A stretch of 64,000 bases of DNA, taken from positions 3,535 to 67,534 of the forward strand of contig JAPLDB010000110.1 of NCBI GenBank assembly GCA_026391975.1, in the 5' to 3' direction. Both the position numbers and the translations under genes were made by a program. Source of the stretch: Bacteroidota bacterium. GTDB taxonomy: Bacteria > Bacteroidota > Bacteroidia > AKYH767-A > 2013-40CM-41-45. This document shows, piece by piece, positions 1,419 through 49,394 of this stretch; position 1 is the first letter of the stretch, and each line of letters opens with the position of its first letter. A model generated the notes under the pieces. The model did not search any database and had not been told where the DNA came from. It saw only the letters and a program-made list of their open reading frames with translations.

Positions 1419-2447
1419 ATGAAACTCGTTTCCTATTCTGTCAATTCAATAGAACACCTGGGTATTTTTCAGGAAGAAAAAATTTATAACCTTTCTGAGG
1501 CAGCAAAAGCCCTCGGTAAAAAAGCCCTTCCTGATGACATGCTTGCTTTTTTGCGGCTCGGGGAAGAAGCTATGAATGAAGCGAAGAGCATTGACAGTGC
1601 AATTAAAGAACAATCTATAATTCCGATTGCTATCGGGATCAAACCGGAAGCTGATTTCGCATTGCTTGCCCCTGTTCCCCACCCTACTTCATGCCGCGAC
1701 GGATATGCCTTTCGCCAGCACGTGGCATCGGCAAGGAGAAACAGAAAAGTGGACATGATCAAGGAGTTTGACCAATACCCTATTTTTTATTTTACCAACC
1801 ACAATGCCATTCAGGGACCGGGAGAGATCTTCTGTATGCCTGATCACTTTCAGAAACTGGATTTTGAACTGGAGGCATCAATTGTTATCGGAAAAAAAGG
1901 AAGAAACATCCGTGCCGCGGAAGCAGATGAATACATTGCAGGGTACATGATCATGAACGACATGAGTGCTCGCACGTTGCAGATGGAAGAAATGCTCCTG
2001 AACCTGGGTCCCGCGAAAGGAAAAGATTTTTCAACGGTGATTGGTCCATGGCTGGTTACCCCGGATGAACTGGAACCGTATAAAATCCCTGCCAAGGAAA
2101 ATCATGTTGGCAATCGTTACAATCTCTCTATGAAGTGTTTTGTGAACGGGAAACAAGTCAGCACAGGAAATCTCGGTGACATGGACTGGACATTTGCAGA
2201 AATCATTGAGCGTTGTGCTTATGGCGTAGACGTTCTTCCCGGTGATGTGATCGGTAGTGGCACAGTTGGTACCGGTTGTTTTCTCGAATTGAACGGAACA
2301 GGATTATTGAACGATCCGAACTTCAAACCACAATGGCTTCAGCCGAATGATGTGGTTGAAATGGAGATTGAAGGACTGGGAAGACTGTCTAATACGATCC
2401 GGAAAGAAGATACAGATTTTTCTATTCTTGCATTGAAGAAAAGTTGA
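1419..2447 (+). CDS. Fumarylacetoacetate hydrolase (FAH) family protein
   Basis: 342 aa. FAH-fold-like C-terminal half (GDVIGSGTVGTGCFLELNG, metal-binding acidic residues). Start is typical for the family. Confidence 0.75.
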   Translation: MKLVSYSVNSIEHLGIFQEEKIYNLSEAAKALGKKALPDDMLAFLRLGEEAMNEAKSIDSAIKEQSIIPIAIGIKPEADFALLAPVPHPTSCRDGYAFRQHVASARRNRKVDMIKEFDQYPIFYFTNHNAIQGPGEIFCMPDHFQKLDFELEASIVIGKKGRNIRAAEADEYIAGYMIMNDMSARTLQMEEMLLNLGPAKGKDFSTVIGPWLVTPDELEPYKIPAKENHVGNRYNLSMKCFVNGKQVSTGNLGDMDWTFAEIIERCAYGVDVLPGDVIGSGTVGTGCFLELNGTGLLNDPNFKPQWLQPNDVVEMEIEGLGRLSNTIRKEDTDFSILALKKS

Positions 2448-2512
2448 ATGGATGAATGGTTTAATAGTTAATTGGCTAATTGGTTGATTAGTTTATTGGT
2501 TGCTTAGTAAAC
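2448..2512. repeat. Degenerate 8-bp tandem repeat (TWATTGGY-like) immediately 3' of the FAH gene stop
   Basis: The repeat begins right after the stop at 2445-2447: ..atggatgaatggtttaatagttaattggctaattggttgattagtttattggttgcttagt. Confidence 0.6.
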
Positions 2513-2688: not shown

Positions 2689-4764
2689 ATGTCTCTTGAG
2701 GCACACAAGGACATGCGACGGAAAAGCGGACTGCCATATATCATGCACCCGCTGGCAGTTGCACAGATCGTTGCTGAAGAAATCGGTCTTGGAACAATGG
2801 CCATCATCGCAGCGCTATTACACGATACGGTAGAAGACACACACCTCACTTTAAACGACATTGAAAAAAACTTCGGAAAGAAAGTCGGAACTATTGTCGA
2901 CGGTCTCACGAAGATTTCAGGCGTATTCGAACAAGGCACCTCACTTCAGGCAGAAAATTTCAGAAAGGTGTTGCTCACCCTCAGTGATGACATTCGCGTT
3001 ATCCTGATCAAACTTGCTGATCGCCTGCACAACATGCGCACGCTCGATCACATGGCGCGTGAGAAACAGTTGAAGATCGCAAGTGAAACGGCTTACCTCT
3101 ATGCTCCGCTTGCGCACCGGCTGGGATTGTATGCCATCAAGGTTGAGATGGACGACCTTGCAATGAAATACACTGACCCTGAAATTTATGAAAGTATCAA
3201 TACCAAACTTCAGGAAACCAAACGCGAACGGCAACGGTTCATCAGTGAATTCAGTGATCCCATCAAAGAAGAAATAGAACGCCAGGGACTGAAATGTGAG
3301 ATCAAAGGCCGACCAAAATCTGTCCATTCCATCTGGATGAAGATGAAAAAGCAAGGCGTTGAGTTTGATGAGATCTACGACATCTTTGCAATCAGGATTA
3401 TTATCGATGTAAATGAAGAAGATGAAAAAGCATTGTGCTGGCGGGTGTATTCCATCGTCACAGATTTTTACCATCCTAATCCGGACAGGTTGCGCGACTG
3501 GATCTCAACACCGAAAAGTACCGGTTACGAATCATTGCATACTACGGTAATGGGCCCTGCCGGCCGATGGGTCGAAGTACAGATCCGTTCCAGACGTATG
3601 GATGAAATAGCAGAGAAAGGCTATGCTGCACATTGGAAATACAAAGAGAGCGCCGCAGAAAGTGCCGTGGATGAATGGATCAGCAAGATCCGCGAGTTGC
3701 TTGAAAATCCGGAAAGCAACGCCCTTGATTTTATCGACGATTTTAAGCTGAACCTCTTCAATGATGAAATATTTGTGTTCACGCCAAACGGTGAATTGAA
3801 ATCATTACCCGGCGGAAGCACAGCACTCGACTTTGCCTTTGAAATTCACAGTGCAGTGGGAAGTAAATGTATCGGCGCCAAAGCAAATCACAAACTGGTT
3901 CCGCTCAGCCATAAGTTGCGCAGTGGTGATCAGGTGGAAATTCTCACATCAAGCAAACAAACACCTAAGGAAGATTGGCTCAACTTTGTTGTCACAGCCA
4001 AAGCAAAATCAAAAATTAAAAATGCGCTGAAGGAAGAAAAGAAAAGTGTGGCAGAAGACGGAAAAGAAATTCTGCAACGAAAATTCAAGCACCTTAAGAT
4101 CCACTTCAACAACGAGAACATCAACGAACTTCTCGCATTTTATAAAATTCCAAGTACACTTGAATTGTATTACCGGATCGCCAAAGGCATTCTTGATATA
4201 TACGACTTAAAAGATTTCGTTGAAGAAAAAGGCCAGATCAAAGCCAAAGCCCCACGTCCGCTGGAACAACAATCACTGGAGCATATGGTACGGAGCATCC
4301 GCGGGAATAGCGACATGCTGGTACTCGGCGAAAACCTCGACCGTATTGACTACAAACTTTCCACCTGCTGCAATCCGATTCCCGGTGATGACGTCTTCGG
4401 ATTTGTAACCGTTGGCGAGGGAATTAAGATCCACCGTGTAAGCTGCCCGAATGCCATTCAGCTCATGAGCAATTACGCCTACCGGATTGTAAAAGCGAAA
4501 TGGACGAACCAGCAGCAGATCGCATTCCTTGCTGGCATCCGCATGACAGGCATTGATGAAGTGGGCATCGTCAATAAAATCTCCAAGGTGATCAGCAGCG
4601 AATTGAAAGTAAACATGCGCAGCATCTCTATCGACAGCAACGACGGTATTTTTGACGGCACCATCATGCTATTTGTGCATGACACAGAACACCTCACGAA
4701 GTTGATGAAAAAATTAAAAGAGATACACGGGATACTGACGGTGAGTCGGGTAGATGCGGGGTAG
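2641..4764 (+). CDS. relA: Bifunctional (p)ppGpp synthetase/hydrolase of the RelA/SpoT (RSH) family. The true start may be ATG 2689 (MSLEAHK..).
   Basis: HD hydrolase motif RKSGLPYIMHPLAVA..LHDTVEDT, RelA_SpoT synthetase domain, TGS and C-terminal ACT domain. The product is 707 aa. Confidence 0.85.
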   Translation: MVFVHSYLLVFSIRIFMSLEAHKDMRRKSGLPYIMHPLAVAQIVAEEIGLGTMAIIAALLHDTVEDTHLTLNDIEKNFGKKVGTIVDGLTKISGVFEQGTSLQAENFRKVLLTLSDDIRVILIKLADRLHNMRTLDHMAREKQLKIASETAYLYAPLAHRLGLYAIKVEMDDLAMKYTDPEIYESINTKLQETKRERQRFISEFSDPIKEEIERQGLKCEIKGRPKSVHSIWMKMKKQGVEFDEIYDIFAIRIIIDVNEEDEKALCWRVYSIVTDFYHPNPDRLRDWISTPKSTGYESLHTTVMGPAGRWVEVQIRSRRMDEIAEKGYAAHWKYKESAAESAVDEWISKIRELLENPESNALDFIDDFKLNLFNDEIFVFTPNGELKSLPGGSTALDFAFEIHSAVGSKCIGAKANHKLVPLSHKLRSGDQVEILTSSKQTPKEDWLNFVVTAKAKSKIKNALKEEKKSVAEDGKEILQRKFKHLKIHFNNENINELLAFYKIPSTLELYYRIAKGILDIYDLKDFVEEKGQIKAKAPRPLEQQSLEHMVRSIRGNSDMLVLGENLDRIDYKLSTCCNPIPGDDVFGFVTVGEGIKIHRVSCPNAIQLMSNYAYRIVKAKWTNQQQIAFLAGIRMTGIDEVGIVNKISKVISSELKVNMRSISIDSNDGIFDGTIMLFVHDTEHLTKLMKKLKEIHGILTVSRVDAG

Positions 4765-4818
4765 GAAGAAGAACAGCCGGCCCCCTGGCCCCCGAAGGGG
4801 GGAATAGCAGCCGAAGAA

Positions 4819-4945
4819 AGCAGCCGTCAATAAGTCATTAGGTCAATGGTCATTCGTCATTGAGTAATTGACCTAAATGAAGTCATTGCGAGGCACGAAG
4901 TTATAAGCAAGGCCCGCTTGAAGTAGTCATTGCGAGGTACAGCCT
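4819..4945. repeat. Array of GTCATTR heptamers 3' of relA, sharing the core CAGCCGTCA with the repeat at 8254-8342
   Basis: gcagccgtcaataagtcattaggtcaatggtcattcgtcattgagtaattgacc .. gaagtcattgcgagg .. gtagtcattgcgagg. Confidence 0.5.
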
Positions 4946-5159
4946 GTCAACCGTAGCCTTGGCGAAGGTTGGAAGCAATCCCCTCAAATTAGTTGTGAAT
5001 GGATTTTGAAGCGGACAATCTCGTTCGTCAACTTCATTCCATCCCGCTACCCGCTTCGCCCTTTGGGCTTTGCTTCTATCCGGGGCTATTTTAGAAAACT
5101 TCAAACTCATAAAAATGAAGTCAAAATTATTAACCCAACTTCAAAATAAAAAATCAGAA

Positions 5160-8253: not shown

Positions 8254-8342
8254 AAACAGCCGTCATTGAGTCATTGGTGATAAAACAGCCGTCAATGGGT
8301 CATTGGTAAGAACAGCCGTCATTAGGTCATTAAGTCAATAAG
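8254..8342. repeat. Three tandem copies of a ~28-bp unit (AACAGCCGTCAWTRRGTCATTRGT) built from GTCATTR heptamers
   Basis: aacagccgtcattgagtcattggtgataa / aacagccgtcaatgggtcattggtaag / aacagccgtcattaggtcattaagtcaataagt. Confidence 0.6.
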
Positions 8343-8397
8343 TATATACCAAATGAATAGTGAACACAAATTTGACCAATTGTCTATTGTTAATCGC

Positions 8398-8440
8398 TAC
8401 TTGCCAACTGCCAACTGCTTACTGCTTACTGCCTACTTCA
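8398..8440. repeat. Heptamer tandem repeat (GCAGTAA / GCAGTTG on the minus strand) directly 3' of the stop of the 8438-8788 gene
   Basis: ttgccaactgccaactgcttactgcttactgcctacttca. The minus-strand stop (tca at 8438-8440) lies inside the first unit. Confidence 0.5.
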
Positions 8441-8788
8441 CTCTTTCACTTTCCTGAATCTTTCCGTCCATTTCGGAATATAATGCACTGCCAGTGTAAT
8501 CAACCCTAAAGCAAAAAAGATTACTGCATATGGCCTGGTTGAATCATTGTAAAAGAATTCTCCCACCATCCATACACTGTTTGCGCAGAGCCAGAATACA
8601 ACGGCGAGATTATGTATAAATTCTTCTTTTACTTTTCGTGTTCTTATAGTCAGAAAAATCGCAACAGAAATAGTTGGTATGATCATACTTACTCCCAGCA
8701 ACTCATAACCCTGTACCCAGCATGTATCTTTAATCAGCCATAATAATATATGCAGGTTCTCGGTAGAGCGGATGCGGGGGGTGGTCAT
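8438..8788 (-). CDS. Small hypothetical integral membrane protein
   Basis: 116 aa with three hydrophobic segments. No recognisable family. Confidence 0.4.
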   Translation of the reverse strand: MTTPRIRSTENLHILLWLIKDTCWVQGYELLGVSMIIPTISVAIFLTIRTRKVKEEFIHNLAVVFWLCANSVWMVGEFFYNDSTRPYAVIFFALGLITLAVHYIPKWTERFRKVKE

Positions 8789-8978
8789 TGGGTTTATTTT
8801 AGTTAGCGAATATATGGAGGTGCCTGATACTTCGTTGATGGGCTAAATTTGTTTATTAAGTTGAATGGTTAATTGGTTAATTATGTTTATTCGGAACAGC
8901 CGCACTTACTGAATCAGCAATTAAACCAATCATTGTTTATCAATTCAAACTACCTTTACACGCTATTAAATTCAACTG

Positions 8979-9737
8979 ATGAAAAGCACTCTCACATTTT
9001 GCATGCTCCTCACATTAATTCTCGGAATAACATGCAGATTTTCCTTCGCGCAAACAGATTCCAACCTTGTTCATGTCAATGGACGGGTTTATGATCCTGC
9101 CACACCCAAACCCGATCTCAATAATTTTATGATCGTTGATATGGAAACCCAGCACGGGTTTTATGGTAAGGCAGATGGCTCTTTCAGCATTGACATCAAT
9201 AAAAATGACACACTTGTAATAGCTGTTATAGGATATGAATTTGTAAAATATTGCTTCAGGGATTCTATTCCAAAAGAACGATACGATCTCCTCGTCAGGC
9301 TAAAAAGAAAAGAAATTCAACTTCCGGAAGTCCGCGTCATTGCTCCGCGTGATCTTGAAGCCATCGAACGCGATATTCAGAAACTTGGATACAACAAACG
9401 GGATTATGAGATCAGCGGGATCAATGCACTTGAAAGTCCAATCACTTTTTTATATGAAGAATTCAGCCGTTTTGAGCAATTGCGCAGGCACAATGCACAA
9501 ATCGTGAATAATGAAAAGCGACGGAACCTGCTGAAAGAACTGCTTTCAAGGTATGTTGCTGATGACATTATTAGCCTGAGTAATGACGAATTCGAACATT
9601 TCATTGACTTCTGTGATGTCAATGAGTCATTCATGAAATCTGCTTCCCAATACGACTTCATGGTTTTTATCAAACGTAAGTTCGAGATGTTTGAAGCCAT
9701 GAATGACTATTACAGACCGAATAGGAAGTATAGGTGA
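8979..9737 (+). CDS. Hypothetical secreted protein with an N-terminal carboxypeptidase-regulatory-like (CarboxypepD_reg) beta-sandwich
   Basis: Signal peptide MKSTLTFCMLLTLILGITCRFSFAQ. Followed by ..VHVNGRVYDPATPKPDLNNFMIVD..GFYGKADGSFSI. Confidence 0.5.
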   Translation: MKSTLTFCMLLTLILGITCRFSFAQTDSNLVHVNGRVYDPATPKPDLNNFMIVDMETQHGFYGKADGSFSIDINKNDTLVIAVIGYEFVKYCFRDSIPKERYDLLVRLKRKEIQLPEVRVIAPRDLEAIERDIQKLGYNKRDYEISGINALESPITFLYEEFSRFEQLRRHNAQIVNNEKRRNLLKELLSRYVADDIISLSNDEFEHFIDFCDVNESFMKSASQYDFMVFIKRKFEMFEAMNDYYRPNRKYR

Positions 9738-9786
9738 GGAGTTGAGTAGTTGAGTAGTTGAGTGGGTGATTAGGTGATTAGGTAGC
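9733..9786. repeat. 8-bp tandem repeat (TAGTTGAG / TAGGTGAT) straddling the stop codon of the 8979-9737 gene
   Basis: ggtgaggagttgagtagttgagtagttgagtgggtgattaggtgattaggtagc. The downstream region 9811-9850 carries complementary-orientation units (tcaaccta..). Confidence 0.55.
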
Positions 9787-9854
9787 AGCCAAAAACAACA
9801 ACGAGAGGTTAATTCTTTCCCTATTCAACCTATCAACCTAATTAACCAATCAAC

Positions 9855-9862
9855 TATCTTTG
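9855..9862 (+). promoter_or_regulatory. Bacteroidota sigma-A -7 box candidate (TATCTTTG, TAnnTTTG consensus) 5 bp upstream of the ATG at 9867
   Basis: Motif match only. It implies a leaderless or very short-leader mRNA. Confidence 0.3.
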
Positions 9863-10737: not shown

Positions 10738-10950
10738 ATGAATTCCATGTATATTCTAAAGGTTAGAGGCACAGCAAAAATTCCGGACTACATTCAGTTG
10801 AGGGGTGATGACTTTACACTTATTGCGTATTTCCGTGTCGACCGCCCTGAGAAAGCACTCACCAAAGCAGGTCTGGCAGATAAGGCAGAACAAATTATGA
10901 AATCCATTGTTGAAATACCTTATGGAAAAATGCTAAAGCTGGATATATAG
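10738..10950 (+). CDS. Small hypothetical protein (70 aa)
   Basis: ORF only. Plausible spacing after the upstream gene, no family recognised. Confidence 0.3.
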   Translation: MNSMYILKVRGTAKIPDYIQLRGDDFTLIAYFRVDRPEKALTKAGLADKAEQIMKSIVEIPYGKMLKLDI

Positions 10951-10986
10951 TTGATTGGTTGAGTGGTTGAGTGGTTGATTGGTTCG
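10948..10986. repeat. 8-bp tandem repeat (TTGAKTGG) immediately after the stop at 10948-10950
   Basis: tagttgattggttgagtggttgagtggttgattggttcg. Confidence 0.55.
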
Positions 10987-15429: not shown

Positions 15430-16206
15430 ATGCCAACTTTTGAAAAAATGATAAACAAAAATGATTTAGTTACATACTGCCTTCGGATCGCCGACACTTC
15501 TCTCATCCTCGGTCAGCGGCTTGGAGAGTGGTGTGGCCACGGACCCATTCTTGAAGAAGATATTGCATTGACAAATATTTCTCTTGACTGCATCGGGCAA
15601 GCGAGGGGATTTTATACTTATGCTGCAGCGCTGGAAGGAACAGGAAAAACAGAGGACGATCTTGCTTATTTGCGTGACGAACGCGAGTTTCAAAATCTGC
15701 TCATTGCAGAACAACCCAACGGAGATTTTGGCCAAACCATCATGCGCCAGTTTTTGGTAAGCGCTTTTCAGTATTATTTTTTTGAGGAACTGAAAAATTC
15801 AAAAGACAAAACCATTGCTGCACTGGCAGAAAAATCACAGAAAGAAGTTTCCTATCACCTGAGACATTCTTCAGCATGGGTGATTCGCCTTGGTGACGGA
15901 ACCGATGAAAGCAAAAAGAGAATGGAAAAAGCGATCGATGAGCTATGGATGTATACAGGAGACATGTTCGACATGGACGAAACCGATGCAACACTCATCA
16001 AAGAATCCATCGCTGTTGATACAAAAAAGATCAAACAACTTTGGGAAAATAAAATAAGGGAGGTCTTTGCTGAAGCTTCATTAACTGTCCCGGAAAATAT
16101 TTTCATGATGAGCGGAAGTCGCGAAGGAAAACACACAGAGAACCTTGGTTTTATACTGGCTGAGATGCAGTCGCTGCACAGGGCGCATCCGGGGGCGGAA
16201 TGGTAA
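15430..16206 (+). CDS. paaC: 1,2-phenylacetyl-CoA epoxidase subunit C
   Basis: 258 aa PaaC-like ferritin fold, positioned between paaB and paaD. Confidence 0.8.
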   Translation: MPTFEKMINKNDLVTYCLRIADTSLILGQRLGEWCGHGPILEEDIALTNISLDCIGQARGFYTYAAALEGTGKTEDDLAYLRDEREFQNLLIAEQPNGDFGQTIMRQFLVSAFQYYFFEELKNSKDKTIAALAEKSQKEVSYHLRHSSAWVIRLGDGTDESKKRMEKAIDELWMYTGDMFDMDETDATLIKESIAVDTKKIKQLWENKIREVFAEASLTVPENIFMMSGSREGKHTENLGFILAEMQSLHRAHPGAEW

Positions 16207-16270
16207 TGAAAAGTCAAAAGTCAAAAGTTAGAAGTTAGAAGTTAGAAGTTAGAAGTTAGAAGTTAGAAGA
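16207..16270. repeat. Perfect heptamer microsatellite (AAAAGTC)x2-(AGTTAGA)x6 filling the paaC-paaD intercistronic gap
   Basis: tgaaaagtcaaaagtcaaaagttagaagttagaagttagaagttagaagttagaagttagaag. It begins 1 bp after the paaC stop and ends at the paaD start. Confidence 0.8.
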
Positions 16271-16762
16271 TTGGCACCATCAGATATTTCCCGGATCACA
16301 TCTCAAATCTCCGACATTCCTGACCCGGAAGTTCCGGTGATCACGATTGCTGACCTCGGAATTTTGAGGGATGTGAAAGAAGATAACGGCAAAATCATTG
16401 TCACCATTACGCCTACTTATAGCGGATGCCCTGCCATGAAGGCGATAGAAAATGAGATAGCAGAGGTATTAAAGAAAAACTCCGTTAGCAATTTTGAGAT
16501 AAAGTATACATTTTCTCCTGCTTGGACTACAGACTGGCTGAATGAAAATGCAAGAGAAAAACTCAGGAAATATGGCATTGCACCTCCTGAAAAAACAACT
16601 TCAGATAAATCCGTTTTACTTGTACATACAAAAACAAAATTATGTCCAAGATGTAATTCGTCAAACACTGAAATGATCTCTGCATTCGGCTCAACAGCAT
16701 GCAAAGCTTTATACAGGTGCAAAAATTGCGGAGAACCATTTGATTATTTTAAATGTCATTAA
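16271..16762 (+). CDS. paaD: Phenylacetate-CoA oxygenase subunit PaaD. The apparent start is TTG, directly abutting the heptamer repeat.
   Basis: SUF/MIP18-like domain (..VITIADLGILRDV..TITPTYSGCPAM..) plus a C-terminal Cys4 zinc ribbon CPRCNS..CKNCGEPF. Confidence 0.8.
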   Translation: MAPSDISRITSQISDIPDPEVPVITIADLGILRDVKEDNGKIIVTITPTYSGCPAMKAIENEIAEVLKKNSVSNFEIKYTFSPAWTTDWLNENAREKLRKYGIAPPEKTTSDKSVLLVHTKTKLCPRCNSSNTEMISAFGSTACKALYRCKNCGEPFDYFKCH

Positions 16763-24203: not shown

Positions 24204-24317
24204 AAACCACGGAGGCACGGAGGTTCACGGAGGTGTACCTAAGTTACAACTATAAAACCAAGGAGACAATGAAATTCAACATGGTTTTACTCTGTGGTTC
24301 TCCGTGCCTCCGTGGTT
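24204..24317. repeat. Long imperfect palindrome: three direct CACGGAGG repeats on the left, and on the right an 18-bp block that is the exact inverse complement of the first two units, about 77 nt apart
   Basis: aaccacggaggcacggaggttcacggagg ... ctccgtgcctccgtggtt. The two arms form an 18-bp perfect stem, and the structure starts 24 bp after the upstream stop. Confidence 0.5.
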
Positions 24318-24406: not shown

Positions 24407-24414
24407 TATCTTTG
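24407..24414 (+). promoter_or_regulatory. -7 box candidate TATCTTTG 5 bp upstream of ATG 24419
   Basis: TAnnTTTG match. Confidence 0.3.
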
Positions 24415-26570: not shown

Positions 26571-26578
26571 TATCTTTG
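26571..26578 (+). promoter_or_regulatory. -7 box candidate TATCTTTG upstream of the 26606 start
   Basis: TAnnTTTG match about 28 bp before ATG 26606. Confidence 0.3.
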
Positions 26579-36995: not shown

Positions 36996-38036
36996 GTGGC
37001 TGAATCGCAGGATAAAATAATTAAGATGGCTGTGGTTGGAGCAGGTCATATCGGCAAGAGACATGCTGAAATGATCCGCAGAAATCCGGAAGCACAACTG
37101 GTGGCTATTTGTGACATCAGGCCGAAAGAATTACTCGGACTGGAAGACGATGTTCCGTTCTTTTCATCTATTGATGAGATGCTTGCTTCAGGCATTGAAA
37201 TCGATGTGGTAAATATCTGCACACCGAATGGATTGCATGCAGAACATGCGCTGAAAGCCCTTGAACATAAAAAACACGTCGTCGTTGAAAAGCCGATGGC
37301 ACTGAAGGTTGCCGACTGCGAGAAAATTATCTTTAAAGCACTGCAGGCATCACGCCATGTTTTTTGTGTAATGCAGAACAGGTACTCTCCTCCATCTGCA
37401 TGGATAAAAGAAGTCATTGAAAAAAAACTGCTCGGAAAAATATTCATGGTTCAGCTGAACTGCTACTGGAACCGCGACGAAAGATATTACAACGGAAAAA
37501 ACTGGAAAGGCAGTGCCGACCTCGATGGTGGTACATTGTTCACACAATTTTCCCATTTCATTGATATCATGTACTGGCTGTTTGGTGACATCAATGACCT
37601 GCAGGGAAAATTTGCAGACTTCAACCATCATGCACTAACGACCTTCGAAGATTCAGGATTTGTTTCATTCAATTTTACAAACGGAGGAATGGGAAGCCTG
37701 AATTATTCAACCTCTGTCTGCGATAAAAACCTTGAAAGCAGCATTACCATCATCGGGGAAAACGGCAGCGTAAAGATCGGCGGACAATACATGAATGATG
37801 TGGAGTATTGCCATATCAGAAACTACACGATGCCACAACTTGCTGAATCAAGTCCGGCAAATGATTACGGAGGATACAAGGGCTCCGCAGCCAATCACCA
37901 CTTTGTAATGGAGAATGTGATCGATACGCTGAAAGGAAGAACCAGTGCCACTACGAATGCGATGGAAGGAATGAAGGTGGTGGATATTATTGAACGGATA
38001 TATGCGATGAGGGATTTGGGGGAAATCAAAAGTTAG
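36996..38036 (+). CDS. Gfo/Idh/MocA-family oxidoreductase (WbpB-like UDP-GlcNAcA 3-dehydrogenase)
   Basis: N-terminal Rossmann MAVVGAGHIGKRHAEMI.. and C-terminal GFO_IDH_MocA domain. Confidence 0.7.
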   Translation: MAESQDKIIKMAVVGAGHIGKRHAEMIRRNPEAQLVAICDIRPKELLGLEDDVPFFSSIDEMLASGIEIDVVNICTPNGLHAEHALKALEHKKHVVVEKPMALKVADCEKIIFKALQASRHVFCVMQNRYSPPSAWIKEVIEKKLLGKIFMVQLNCYWNRDERYYNGKNWKGSADLDGGTLFTQFSHFIDIMYWLFGDINDLQGKFADFNHHALTTFEDSGFVSFNFTNGGMGSLNYSTSVCDKNLESSITIIGENGSVKIGGQYMNDVEYCHIRNYTMPQLAESSPANDYGGYKGSAANHHFVMENVIDTLKGRTSATTNAMEGMKVVDIIERIYAMRDLGEIKS

Positions 38037-38123
38037 AAGTCACAAGTTAAAAGGCAAAAGTCATAAGTCATAAGTCATAAGTCATAAGTCAAAAGTTAAA
38101 AGTTATAAGTAATAAGTTAAAAG
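38027..38123. repeat. Heptamer microsatellite (AGTTAGA / AGTCATA x4 / AGTTAAA) starting inside the last codons of the oxidoreductase gene and filling the gap to the next gene
   Basis: caaaagttagaagtcacaagttaaaaggcaaaagtcataagtcataagtcataagtcataagtcaaaagttaaaagttataagtaataagttaaaag. The gene's TAG stop is part of the first unit. Confidence 0.8.
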
Positions 38124-38166
38124 CCTGCCCGAATCACGAAGTGAGGCGGGTTAAAAGATTAGGAAT

Positions 38167-47797: not shown

Positions 47798-48443
47798 TGT
47801 CCCAAGCTTAAAAACACGAGCTCCAGAGGAGCGACCTGTTTGTAGAATGTGGAGATCTTTCAGTTTTTTCAGCTCCATAGGAGCGGCCTGTAATTTAACA
47901 TCTCGGATTTGAAAAATAATCAACGGCTCATGTTGATTATTTTAAGGACAAATAAATACCAGCAATTTCACTCTCATATTTGGTGCGCGATATAAAGACC
48001 GGGTCTTCCAAATTTATCAATGACATTCATTGGTTAAAAGGGAAATTTAACTTTCAGAATGGATTTGGAGTATTTTCTTATTCAAGAAACCAGATTGATT
48101 CTGTTGTAAGATAAATACTGAATCAGGAAGAACATCATAAAAATCAAATATTCCGGGAGGAATATCATAGTCTCCTTGTGAAATTTGGAATTGAATACGA
48201 TGAAAAATATCTCTTTACCTGTATTGAATAAACAGGCCGCTCCTACGGAGCTCAAACTAATCGAATGGATATTTTCTACAAACAGGCCGCTCCCACGGAG
48301 CTTGAAAAAATTCAATGGGTGTTTTCTAAAATATCGCTTACGACCTCAAATGATTAATAATTGAGCCGGAATTTTTAATTGGGAAATTTTTTAATTGGTT
48401 TGACTATGATACCATATGACCAGCAGGTTTCCCATTGTCGAAA
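47713..48443. mobile_element. About 0.73-kb non-coding palindromic (MITE-like) insertion, flanked by an imperfect 40-bp direct duplication of ruvC 3' sequence
   Basis: Each arm has two tandem ~50-bp units. The left units (47818-47845, 47870-47892) are inverse-complementary to the right units (48231-48253, 48276-48303). There is an internal 11-bp perfect hairpin (aaataatcaac..gttgattattt) at 47916-47944. The flank duplicates are 47674-47713 and 48445-48484 (3 mismatches in 40). Confidence 0.45.
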
Positions 48444-48923: not shown

Positions 48924-49394
48924 TTATCTGCTGATAGAAACAATTTCAAATTTCATTTTTCCGGACGGGACTTCAATCACCGCTACTTCACCGACTTTTT
49001 TTCCAAGCAATCCTTTGCCTATTGGTGAGCTAACAGAAATTTTTCCGGATTTAAGGTCAGCCTCGTTTTCGGCAACAAGGGTATAGGTCATCGACTGACC
49101 ATTGCCTTTGTTCTTGATCTTCACTTTTGAAAGGACCATCGCTTTGGAATTATCCATCTTGCTTTCATCCACGAGGCGGGCATTTGCAATAACCGTCTCT
49201 AATTTGGAAATACGGAGCTCAAGCATGCCCTGGGCATCTTTAGCCGCGTCGTATTCCGCATTCTCTGATAAGTCGCCTTTATCGCGGGCCTCGGCAATTT
49301 GTGCGGATATGCGTGGGCGCTCTACGTTCCTTAATTGAGCTAATTCTTCCTGAAGCCTCTTCAGGCCATCTTCAGTGTAATAGGAAACTGACAT
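48924..49394 (-). CDS. greA: Transcription elongation factor GreA
   Basis: N-terminal coiled coil with the acidic tip DLSENAEYDAAKDAQ, and a C-terminal FKBP-like domain. Confidence 0.9.
   Translation of the reverse strand: MSVSYYTEDGLKRLQEELAQLRNVERPRISAQIAEARDKGDLSENAEYDAAKDAQGMLELRISKLETVIANARLVDESKMDNSKAMVLSKVKIKNKGNGQSMTYTLVAENEADLKSGKISVSSPIGKGLLGKKVGEVAVIEVPSGKMKFEIVSISR

Follow-up and report, generated by a model that had tools for sequence, protein, structure and literature searches.

Tandem arrays of 7-8 bp at gene boundaries in an uncultured Bacteroidota lineage: probable slippage-generated microsatellites that follow a strand-specific placement rule

The 64,000-nucleotide stretch of DNA analyzed here, hereafter called the window (positions 3,535 to 67,534 of contig JAPLDB010000110.1, assembly GCA_026391975.1, Bacteroidota bacterium), carries short tandem arrays with a period of seven or eight base pairs between its genes, one of which occupies the gap between paaC and paaD. 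A previous sequence-only reading listed eleven such sites and proposed that each array begins within, or 1-2 bp after, a stop codon, which raises the question as to why repeats of this kind should be located at gene ends. The explanation that we favor, with a probability of roughly 60%, is that these arrays are microsatellites generated by slippage and retained where a duplication of 7-8 bp is harmless, i.e., between open reading frames (ORFs) and the next functional element. Whole units are gained and lost far faster than the neighboring non-coding DNA changes, unit variants replace each other within arrays, nearly all arrays are intergenic, and they are found at ORF boundaries more often than random placement within their own gaps predicts.

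Arrays in the window were called with Tandem Repeats Finder (TRF), which returned eight merged arrays of period 7 or 8, all inside the 5,149 bp of intergenic DNA, while shuffles performed within the gaps (n=100) yielded a mean of 0.06 arrays and a maximum of one. The observation is therefore real and far beyond chance, and the eleven sites listed from sequence are all present, although that at 2448-2512 is degenerate and that at 8845-8890 weak. Placement was assessed in a wider sample of 1.38 Mb, composed of the window and 80 paaC loci of other Bacteroidota (among the matches listed), in which arrays of at least three copies were counted and genes were called from ORFs with crude starts. Period 7 is the most common in this sample (49 arrays), followed by periods 8 (34), 9 (17), 6 (10) and 10 (6), and 62 of the 83 arrays of period 7 or 8 are intergenic, with roughly 10% of the DNA lying outside called ORFs. 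No more than 9 nt separate 43 of 60 intergenic arrays from a gene boundary, compared to 20 expected under uniform placement in their own gaps. Since stop codons are independent of the crude start calls, a count based on stops only was also used; here, 22 of the 52 arrays in stop-bounded gaps lie within 6 nt of the stop, compared to 8.9 expected (p < 2e-5). Stop proximity thus holds as a statistical feature of this sample. Arrays lying against called starts are about as numerous as stop-side ones, and about half of the stop-side arrays contain the gene's own stop codon in their first unit. The stop codon of the gene is in phase with the stop triplets of the array in 5 of 16 cases by a crude count (p = 0.07), or in ~7 of 16 with ties settled by eye, which is only suggestive.

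The evidence for turnover is derived from related genomes, coded L001-L011, L073 and L084. The window has a G+C content of 42% and contains a Por_Secre_tail domain, and its nearest genomes are labelled Flavobacteriales or Bacteroidia. The nearest species-representative genome is L004, a metagenome-assembled genome (MAG) labelled 'uncultured Flavobacteriales bacterium', which retains the gene order over ~15 kb and exhibits 85-100% amino-acid identity to the window, while L006 exhibits ~83%. Gene positions in the window were taken from ORFs, from Pfam matches and from genes called on a metagenome contig of identical sequence. Outside the arrays, orthologous gaps of the window and L004 hardly differ, and the indels, of 8 nt, 4+4 nt and 16+8 nt, fall inside the arrays; in gap A, the split alignment gaps sum to approximately one 29-bp superunit (~29 nt) and approximately three heptamers (~21 nt). 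Arrays of the two genomes also differ in their predominant unit variant. At the 9731 site, the copy number is 6.6 in the window, ~4 in L004 and ~2 in L005, bearing in mind that array copy numbers may be collapsed in MAG assemblies. L006 lacks several of these arrays, though it has others nearby.

The paaC-paaD junction shows this turnover within a single gap. As had been described from sequence, the (AGTTAGA)n array fills this gap completely (16207-16270) and abuts the TTG start of paaD at 16271. The corresponding gap carries AAGTTAG units in the window, AGGCAGT x6.9 together with a hairpin in L004, and ATGCACG-like units x12.4 in L005, while that of L006 has no array; in the more distant L007, L008 and L011, the paaC stop and the paaD start overlap or abut, in L007 as TAATG. 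The window retains TAATGAAAA, in which a remnant ATG (16205-16207) overlaps the paaC TAA and opens a mini-ORF, MKSQKSKVRS* (10 codons). The array closes the frame of this remnant ATG, and paaD must therefore start at TTG 16271, a position that is orthologous to the paaD ATG of L004, L005 and L006. From this sequence comparison, the ancestral ATG of paaD, within the TAATG overlap, appears to have been lost and the start to be now TTG 16271. That the array alters intercistronic coupling, as was previously suggested, is supported by its having replaced the ancestral TAATG junction kept in L007. The RNA of this array is unstructured (z = +0.93).

Under the favored explanation, slipped-strand duplication of a 7-8-nt segment would persist where it does no harm. 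At a stop codon, the first copy would still end the protein, and upstream of a start, a leader that is A-rich and G-poor would suffice in Bacteroidetes, which would not require a Shine-Dalgarno sequence. An insertion of 7 or 8 bp within an ORF would shift the frame, while deletion bias would clear other spacer DNA, and together these would trap arrays between a stop or start and whichever functional element comes next. The direct effect of the arrays would be untranslated spacers that are longer and re-composed. At paaC-paaD, a TAATG would have given way to a 64-nt unstructured, A-rich spacer with stops in three frames, followed by TTG, which should uncouple paaD translation, and paired inverted octamer arrays may form hairpins. 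Such spacing and coupling effects are probably by-products, and not the reason for the arrays.

The array sites of the window, and the periodic coding DNA that adjoins one of them, are as follows:

2442-2512, plus strand: degenerate octamer array GTTGAATG GATGAATG GTTTAATA GTTAATTG GCTAATTG GTTGATTA ..., with 21 of 28 matches at period 8 at the start of the gap
2614-2688 (TRF 2615-2683), plus strand: array of ATTCGTA/ATTAGTA type with a 31-bp superperiod, start-proximal, ending at ATG 2689
4818-4870, plus strand: AGCAGCCG followed by GTCAWTR units at 7-8-bp spacing (TRF 4826-4852, period 8, 3.5 copies)
8254-8343, plus strand: three 29-bp superunits (AAACAGCCG + TCATTGR + GTCATTGG ...) followed by octamers (TRF: superunit x2.8, GTCATTG units)
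8397-8437, minus strand: heptamer array AGTAGGC AGTAAGC AGTAAGC AGTTGGC AGTTGGC, period 7, 5.7 copies
8845-8890, plus strand: weak octamer array TTGAATGG TTAATTGG TTAATTAT, TRF 2.1 copies, 18 of 28 matches at period 8
9731-9783, plus strand: octamer array TAGGTGAG / TAGTTGAG / TAGGTGAT, period 8, 6.6 copies
9820-9858, plus strand: C/A-rich octamer array CCTATCAA / CCTAATTAA / CCAATCAA, period 8, 4.8 copies
10948-10984 (TRF 10950-10984), plus strand: octamer array TAGTTGAT TGGTTGAG TGGTTGAG TGGTTGAT TGGTT, period 8, 4.4 copies
16207-16270 (TRF 16209-16269), plus strand: AAAAGTC x3 followed by perfect AAGTTAG x6.4, filling the paaC-paaD gap up to TTG 16271
38026-38123, plus strand: AGTYANA x14 (AGTTAGA, AGTCACA, AGTTAAA, AGTCATA x4, AGTCAAA ...), period 7, 14 copies
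~16296-16318: periodic DNA encoding the PaaD N-terminus (L004 10910-10942; L006 10787-10818; L009 ~10790-10810)

The claim that each array begins at a stop codon holds for six of the eleven sites (2442/2448, 8397-8437, 9731, 10948, 16207 and 38026), while the other five (2614, 4819, 8254, 8845 and 9811-9850) are start- or promoter-adjacent or lie in mid-gap. The TGA stop (2445-2447) of an FAA-hydrolase gene, assigned by Pfam, lies inside the first unit of the 2442-2512 array, the TGA stop (9735-9737) of a 252-aa gene in that of the 9731-9783 array, and the 10948 array opens with the TAG stop of a 70-aa ORF; at the latter position L004 carries (TAGTTGAA)n with one unit more. The 8397-8437 array abuts the TGA stop of a 116-aa gene on the minus strand (8438-8788) and has ~3 copies in L004. 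The array listed at 38027-38123 was correctly placed inside the last codons of a WbpB-like gene of the GFO/IDH/MocA family, whose TAG stop (38034-38036) it includes; beyond it come a GC hairpin (~38122-38151) and the start of the next gene (38167). Among the sites that are not stop-associated, the 4818 array lies 55 nt 3' of the stop of a relA/spoT-like gene, with a GC-rich hairpin (~4780-4803) in between, while the array at 8254-8343 is in mid-gap, flanked by two minus-strand genes, and is one superunit shorter in L004. The 29-bp composite unit of the latter occurs once at 4818 and three times at 8254. The weak 8845-8890 array lies in a divergent promoter region or gap, without a real stop codon next to it. 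The 9820-9858 array belongs to the reverse-complement family of the 9731 array and runs into TATCTTTG (9855-9862), 4 nt before ATG 9867.

The TATCTTTG element, which we take to be a Bacteroidetes -7 promoter box (motif TAnnTTTG), also occurs at 24407-24414 and 26571-26578, as well as, on the minus strand, 5' of 48924-49394. Both ATG 9867 and ATG 24419 follow it at a distance of only 4 nt, which suggests leaderless or very short-leader mRNAs for these two genes. The start of the relA/spoT-like gene is likewise affected by an array, in that its longest ORF begins at ATG 2641, inside the 2614 array, and would add 16 residues (MVFVHSYLLVFSIRIF). Only from about residue 14-20 of this ORF is it homologous to solved Rel proteins, making ATG 2689 the likelier start, in which case the predicted N-terminus is much shorter than those of solved Rel proteins; a three-frame translation upstream of the 2614 array revealed no hidden N-terminal exon.

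The previous statement that a 7-bp period cannot be coding holds for the window's own arrays, which contain stop codons in all frames and are non-coding, but it is too strong as a general rule. The PaaD N-terminus in this clade (SHISHLKSQIS and similar) is encoded by heptamer-like (ATCTCAN)n DNA, so that a 7-bp array can be coding when it lacks stop codons, and 27 AGTYANA arrays, all on the coding strand, were found inside ORFs of metagenome contigs among the matches listed. The remaining general statements of the sequence-only reading, namely that the arrays are non-coding, slippage-prone and related in unit sequence, are supported. Its proposal of a genome-specific selfish repeat is not, as heptamer units from different lineages resemble each other no more closely than composition-matched shuffles do. 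The most enriched trinucleotide among 34 intergenic heptamer units is TCA/TGA (15 vs 8.5), without a clear shared core, and a shared AGT core with the short tandemly repeated repetitive (STRR) sequences of cyanobacteria and with TAACTGA was rejected, since AGT/ACT is not among the ten most enriched trinucleotides. With heptamer units resembling shuffles and no core trinucleotide standing out, no dedicated recognition sequence is indicated.

Variation within populations was sought in read-derived contigs. Only three SRA runs, related to one another, were found to carry the sequence, in three contigs of the paaC region and one contig retrieved for the 38-kb region; these are identical to the window, show the same gene spacing, or break inside the perfect array, and no variation was seen in them. 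The three paaC contigs (Logan, k=31; L001-L003) all stop at window position 16238, 32 nt past paaC and inside the perfect (AAGTTAG)n; arrays therefore fragment short-k-mer assemblies, and MAG copy numbers may be unreliable. In L084, the genes on either side of the 38026 array are 130 nt apart by gene coordinates, as in the window, the DNA itself not having been aligned.

A number of side observations concern other repeats. The motif ACAGCCG is present in ten copies in the window compared to 3.8 expected, six of them intergenic (4773, 8256, 8285, 8312, 8896 and 32775); five of these adjoin 7/8-bp arrays, and 32775 has none nearby. The motif is also found beside arrays of L005 and L006, in places reverse-complemented. 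The sequence GTCATTGCGAGG[CT]AC occurs twice, 43 nt apart (4884-4900 and 4927-4943), past the GTCATTR array in the convergent gap 4765-5159, and this pair may be part of a larger dispersed element. A 50-bp unit (AAACAGGCCGCTCC[CT]ACGGAGCT...) forms two tandem copies, with inverted copies 340-430 nt away whose arms of 25-29 nt are 86-92% complementary (47819-47891 and 48230-48329); this family is distinct from the 7/8-bp arrays. Inverted array pairs within one gap were also seen in other Bacteroidota (L006 5356-5446; L009 4836-4912 and 9048-9215; L073 982-1084), examples being (TTGATTRR)n...(YYAATCAA)n, (AGTTCAAT)n...(ATTGAACT)n and (ACGGATTTC)n...(AAAATCCGT)n.

Several findings weigh against slippage with passive retention as a full explanation. 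Unit families recur within the window, the octamer GGTTGAKT at 5-6 sites, AGTYANA at two and GTCATTR at 2-3, and octamers of the GGTTGATT type are closer to each other between lineages than expected (13 vs 4.3 pairs at distance <=1). Even in long gaps, over which uniform nucleation would spread them, arrays lie directly against stops, and the start-proximal class is inflated because gene starts were obtained by ORF-based calling. The C/A-rich octamer array upstream of gene 9867 is kept in the window, L004 and L005, a conservation across three species that hints at constraint. Stop-side arrays contain 28% G and 9% C on the sense strand, as opposed to 15.7% G and 16.6% C in array-free 3' flanks, and this skew persists outside stop triplets (185 G vs 82 C). 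A fixed-unit scan of metagenome contigs for (AGTYANA) of at least 3.4 copies, which returned at least 120 loci, gave 36 sense against 15 antisense arrays, among the matches listed, where a stop is the nearest boundary, and the antisense unit also always holds a stop triplet. Neutral slippage gives no account of the sense-strand skew or of the AGTYANA orientation bias, for which a functional or mechanistic alternative may apply.

The asymmetry extends to both gene boundaries, such that the G-rich, C-poor strand is the sense strand just after stops, while its complement is the sense strand just before starts. Sense-strand G exceeds C in 17 of the 21 stop-side arrays, compared to seven start-side arrays with G>C and thirteen with C>G. 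Start-side arrays match ordinary 5' flanks in being G-poor and A-rich. The density of stop triplets in stop-side arrays is 12.2 per 100 nt in sense and 4.0 in antisense, and 12 of the 21 arrays hold at least 0.8 stop triplets per unit in sense, as against one of 21 in antisense. Among the metagenome matches listed, AGTYANA arrays within 12 nt of a stop are on the coding strand in 24 cases and on the other in 6, while those nearest a start are sense in 17 and antisense in 29. Boundary placement recurs in viral contigs (IMG/VR, at least 120 loci), with a weak strand bias among the matches listed (29 vs 21 and 18 vs 21).

Several simple causes of the asymmetry were rejected. Skew as a by-product of stop triplets is excluded by its persistence outside them, skew as a general property of 3' flanks by the near equality of G and C in array-free flanks, and skew due to the replication strand by the negative cumulative GC skew of the window, in which the arrays are G-rich on the plus strand. 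Avoidance of upstream starts is contradicted as a cause of orientation, since stop-side arrays contain 8.6 NTG triplets per 100 nt in sense compared to 4.3 in antisense, and since antisense AGTCATA/AGTCAAA units put ATG/TTG in leaders, yet antisense arrays are the more common near starts among the matches listed.

A first alternative is that the arrays are cis-elements under selection, with composition and orientation and not the exact sequence determining their function. C-poor, stop-rich and unstructured spacers after stops would insulate or uncouple cistrons and would halt read-through and frameshifted ribosomes in all frames, and stop-side arrays might conceivably offer no C-rich loading site for Rho; A/C-rich arrays would act as leaders lacking structure or as promoter spacers, and inverted pairs as terminator or stabilizer hairpins. 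The G>C skew and stop-triplet density of stop-side arrays, which ordinary 3' flanks do not share, are consistent with this, as are the 24 vs 6 orientation bias within 12 nt of stops among the listed metagenome matches, the persistence of arrays at the same junctions in the window, L004 and L005 despite unit turnover, and the occurrence of the same rule in three phyla (PMC4692102). Structure provides a further, local point, in that the G/T-rich (9731-9783) and C/A-rich (9820-9858) arrays of gap C form an imperfect hairpin (-36.8 kcal/mol, z = -2.76), the latter array being conserved by the TATCTTTG box. However, heptamer arrays show no structure (the 38026 array has z = -0.43), candidate inverted pairs at 2440-2615 and 8830-8960 fold no better than shuffles, L006 lacks arrays at several junctions with its genes intact, the orientation bias in the listed viral matches is weak (29 vs 21), and selection for back-up stop codons is normally very weak. 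We consider this alternative unlikely.

The termination signals proposed in the sequence-only reading find no support either, as the heptamer arrays are unstructured and without terminator features. As hairpin terminators, the arrays were rejected because, among the folds that were run, only gap C and a separate element fold well. The latter consists of inverted arrays of CACGGAGG x3 (24205-24232 and 24290-24317) and forms a distinct, G+C-rich stem-loop (-58.8 kcal/mol, z = -8.1) in the gap 5' of gene 24419. A sigma-70 promoter/terminator scan of the window, not designed for Bacteroidetes, returned 17 hits compared to 18.3 in shuffles, and an Rfam search of the window returned no family match.

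It is also conceivable, though we judge it distinctly unlikely, that the placement and strand rule is the mark of a general, undiscovered mechanism acting on 7-8-nt periodic sequence at ORF boundaries, the rule being seen here in a third phylum and with A/T-rich units unable to form G-quadruplexes. Such a mechanism could possibly take the form of an oligomeric factor that recognizes or generates arrays, or, as another possibility, of a loss of transcription-translation coupling at the stop that drives orientation-specific expansion, e.g., through R-loops. In either form, arrays between cistrons would function as insulators and as stops in all frames.

A further proposal is that of multi-site platforms for an oligomeric RNA-, single-stranded DNA- or DNA-binding protein, each subunit of which would contact a short core at 7-8-nt spacing. 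Parallels would be HutP on UAG-N4 repeats and TRAP on GAG/UAG, as well as the cold-shock/S1 proteins proposed for TAACTGA repeats; UAGAAGU repeats presumably fit the UAG-N4 spacing of HutP sites. In the 38026 array, unit positions 1, 2, 5 and 7 are invariant, position 3 varies once and positions 4 and 6 are free (AGTYANA), and an unidentified partner has been proposed in MacGregor 2015 (PMC4679880) and in a preprint on Nostoc recO/recF (10.1101/2022.06.06.494920). Orthologous sites nevertheless carry the unrelated units AAGTTAG, AGGCAGT and ATGCACG, no core trinucleotide is clearly enriched, the heptamer units of different lineages resemble shuffles, and no candidate protein was identified. 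The sites do not share a triplet core at fixed spacing, as HutP- or TRAP-type recognition would demand, and a platform of this kind is very unlikely.

Still less credence can be given to the arrays having been made or spread by a dedicated mechanism, be it a mobile element resembling miniature inverted-repeat transposable elements (MITEs) or repetitive extragenic palindromic (REP) sequences, or a repeat-adding enzyme. The recurrence of unit families across window sites, the inverted array pairs, the ACAGCCG motifs flanking arrays, and the 29-bp composite unit at 4818 and thrice at 8254 would agree with spreading, as would the finding of identical units at a minimum of 120 loci each in metagenome and viral contigs and the dominant unit peculiar to each genome, which has been noted as a puzzle (PMC4679880). 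Against this, the simplicity of A-rich heptamers allows chance recurrence in very large databases, array edges coincide with stop codons and not with element ends, and relatives differ by whole-unit indels inside arrays, not by the presence or absence of discrete elements. Reading of the arrays and their flanks in these 64 kb, in which no systematic search was made, revealed no terminal inverted repeats or target-site duplications, and no transposase was noticed nearby, the neighboring genes not having been annotated for one.

Lastly, the arrays are extremely improbable contingency loci, in which reversible copy-number changes would switch or tune adjacent genes, because the neighbors are metabolic or housekeeping genes (the paa operon, relA/spoT, an aminotransferase, an ABC ATPase and sugar-nucleotide enzymes) and no polymorphism was seen in the three related SRA runs (three paaC-region contigs and one 38-kb-region contig); perfect repeats such as (AAGTTAG)x6.4 are slippage-prone, copy number differs between species, and heptanucleotide repeats reportedly tune expression of the H. 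influenzae hmw genes, but ~11 sites in 64 kb are far denser than contingency loci, most arrays follow stops, where unit number cannot alter reading frame or promoter spacing, and only 9820-9858 lies in a putative promoter region, contingency repeats being placed in ORFs or between promoter elements of surface or virulence genes. The phase-modulator role suggested in the sequence-only reading is accordingly unlikely.

Slippage with retention between ORFs and the next functional element, the explanation favored here, thus leaves the arrays to be placed among known repeats. They provide a clear evolutionary example, the paaC/paaD junction, where arrays have entered a site of translational coupling and three sister species each have a different unit. 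In practical terms, such arrays mislead ORF callers with respect to starts, as seen for relA/spoT (2641 vs 2689) and the TTG of paaD, and break short-k-mer assemblies.

Knowledge of intergenic heptamer repeats dates back to 1990, and several phyla contain them in abundance. In that year, Mazel et al. reportedly described the cyanobacterial STRR sequences with the units CCCCAGT, TTGGTCA and CAACAGT. Like these, the window's arrays include tandem heptamers dispersed through intergenic DNA, and the window unit GTCATTG (4826 and 8254-8343) is what we take to be a rotation of the STRR unit TTGGTCA. In the strict sense the arrays fall outside the STRR family, as the host belongs to the Bacteroidota and not to the heterocystous cyanobacteria and most units differ from the STRR units, only the GTCATTG sites matching one of them by rotation. 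The Nostoc preprint reports GAC(C/T)AAT x8 upstream of recO (10.1101/2022.06.06.494920), and GTCATTG is, after rotation, the reverse complement of the unit GACCAAT. That one simple heptamer is common to the window and STRR may be coincidence.

MacGregor 2015 described heptamer arrays, TAACTGA among their units, from Beggiatoaceae, from cyanobacteria and from five Bacteroidetes (Gramella, Aequorivita, Elizabethkingia, Flexibacter and Paludibacter), together with indels in 7-nt steps between Cyanothece strains and assemblies that break in arrays (PMC4679880). The arrays of the window resemble these in being intergenic, located at starts or stops and missing from orthologous gaps of close relatives. 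The Beggiatoaceae genome has a single dominant unit in 169 sets, mostly just 5' of starts and in forward orientation (PMC4679880), whereas several unit families are present here and approximately half of the arrays are stop-side.

The closest parallel in placement is that of Rehm 2015, in which GGGAATC (Xanthomonas) and GGGGAYT (Nostoc) repeats were found to be ~90% intergenic, with an average distance of 28 nt to the upstream ORF and 160 nt to the downstream ORF (PMC4692102). Their G-rich strand is the coding strand just after stops, overlaps with the stop included, and the non-coding strand just before starts; inverted pairs occur, the neighbors belong to all functional classes, no function was found, and repeat length and sequence vary at conserved positions between Xanthomonas species (PMC4692102). 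The window's arrays agree with this description with respect to period 7, intergenic location, proximity to the upstream ORF, the strand rule, inverted pairs, neighbors of all functional classes, and length and sequence variation at conserved positions between close species, the bias being weaker in viral contigs among the matches listed. Stop-proximal placement, presented in the sequence-only reading as the unusual part, was thus already published for the Xanthomonas and Nostoc heptamers (PMC4692102). The arrays differ from the latter in that octamers equal heptamers in frequency, the host belongs to the Bacteroidota, and nearly every unit of stop-side arrays holds a stop triplet. Furthermore, the units of Rehm 2015 form G-quadruplexes, in terms of which the rule was discussed (PMC4692102), while the window's units (AGTTAGA, AGTCATA, GGTTGATT) are A/T-rich and cannot. 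As the placement and strand rule also holds for units unable to form such structures, the G-quadruplex-based reading of it is weakened.

Heptanucleotides are reported to be the most abundant class of long simple sequence repeats (SSRs), for which an origin by polymerase slippage was proposed (Mrazek 2007, as relayed in PMC4679880 and PMC4692102). The LSSR5-11 survey of Mrazek, Guo and Shah 2007 is reported to describe a class that is likewise dominated by heptamers, found in free-living bacteria, attributed to slippage and non-coding, since unit lengths not divisible by three are excluded from ORFs; it concerns cultured genomes, and is not reported to describe stop-codon placement or the strand rule. 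The arrays studied here consist of head-to-tail units beyond chance, have 7 as their commonest period, are largely confined to non-coding DNA, and change length by whole units between conserved flanks. All tested defining features of the heptamer-dominated long-SSR class are thus present, and the arrays are therefore a member of it and not a new kind, which places an uncultured Bacteroidota lineage in the intergenic heptamer-repeat class.

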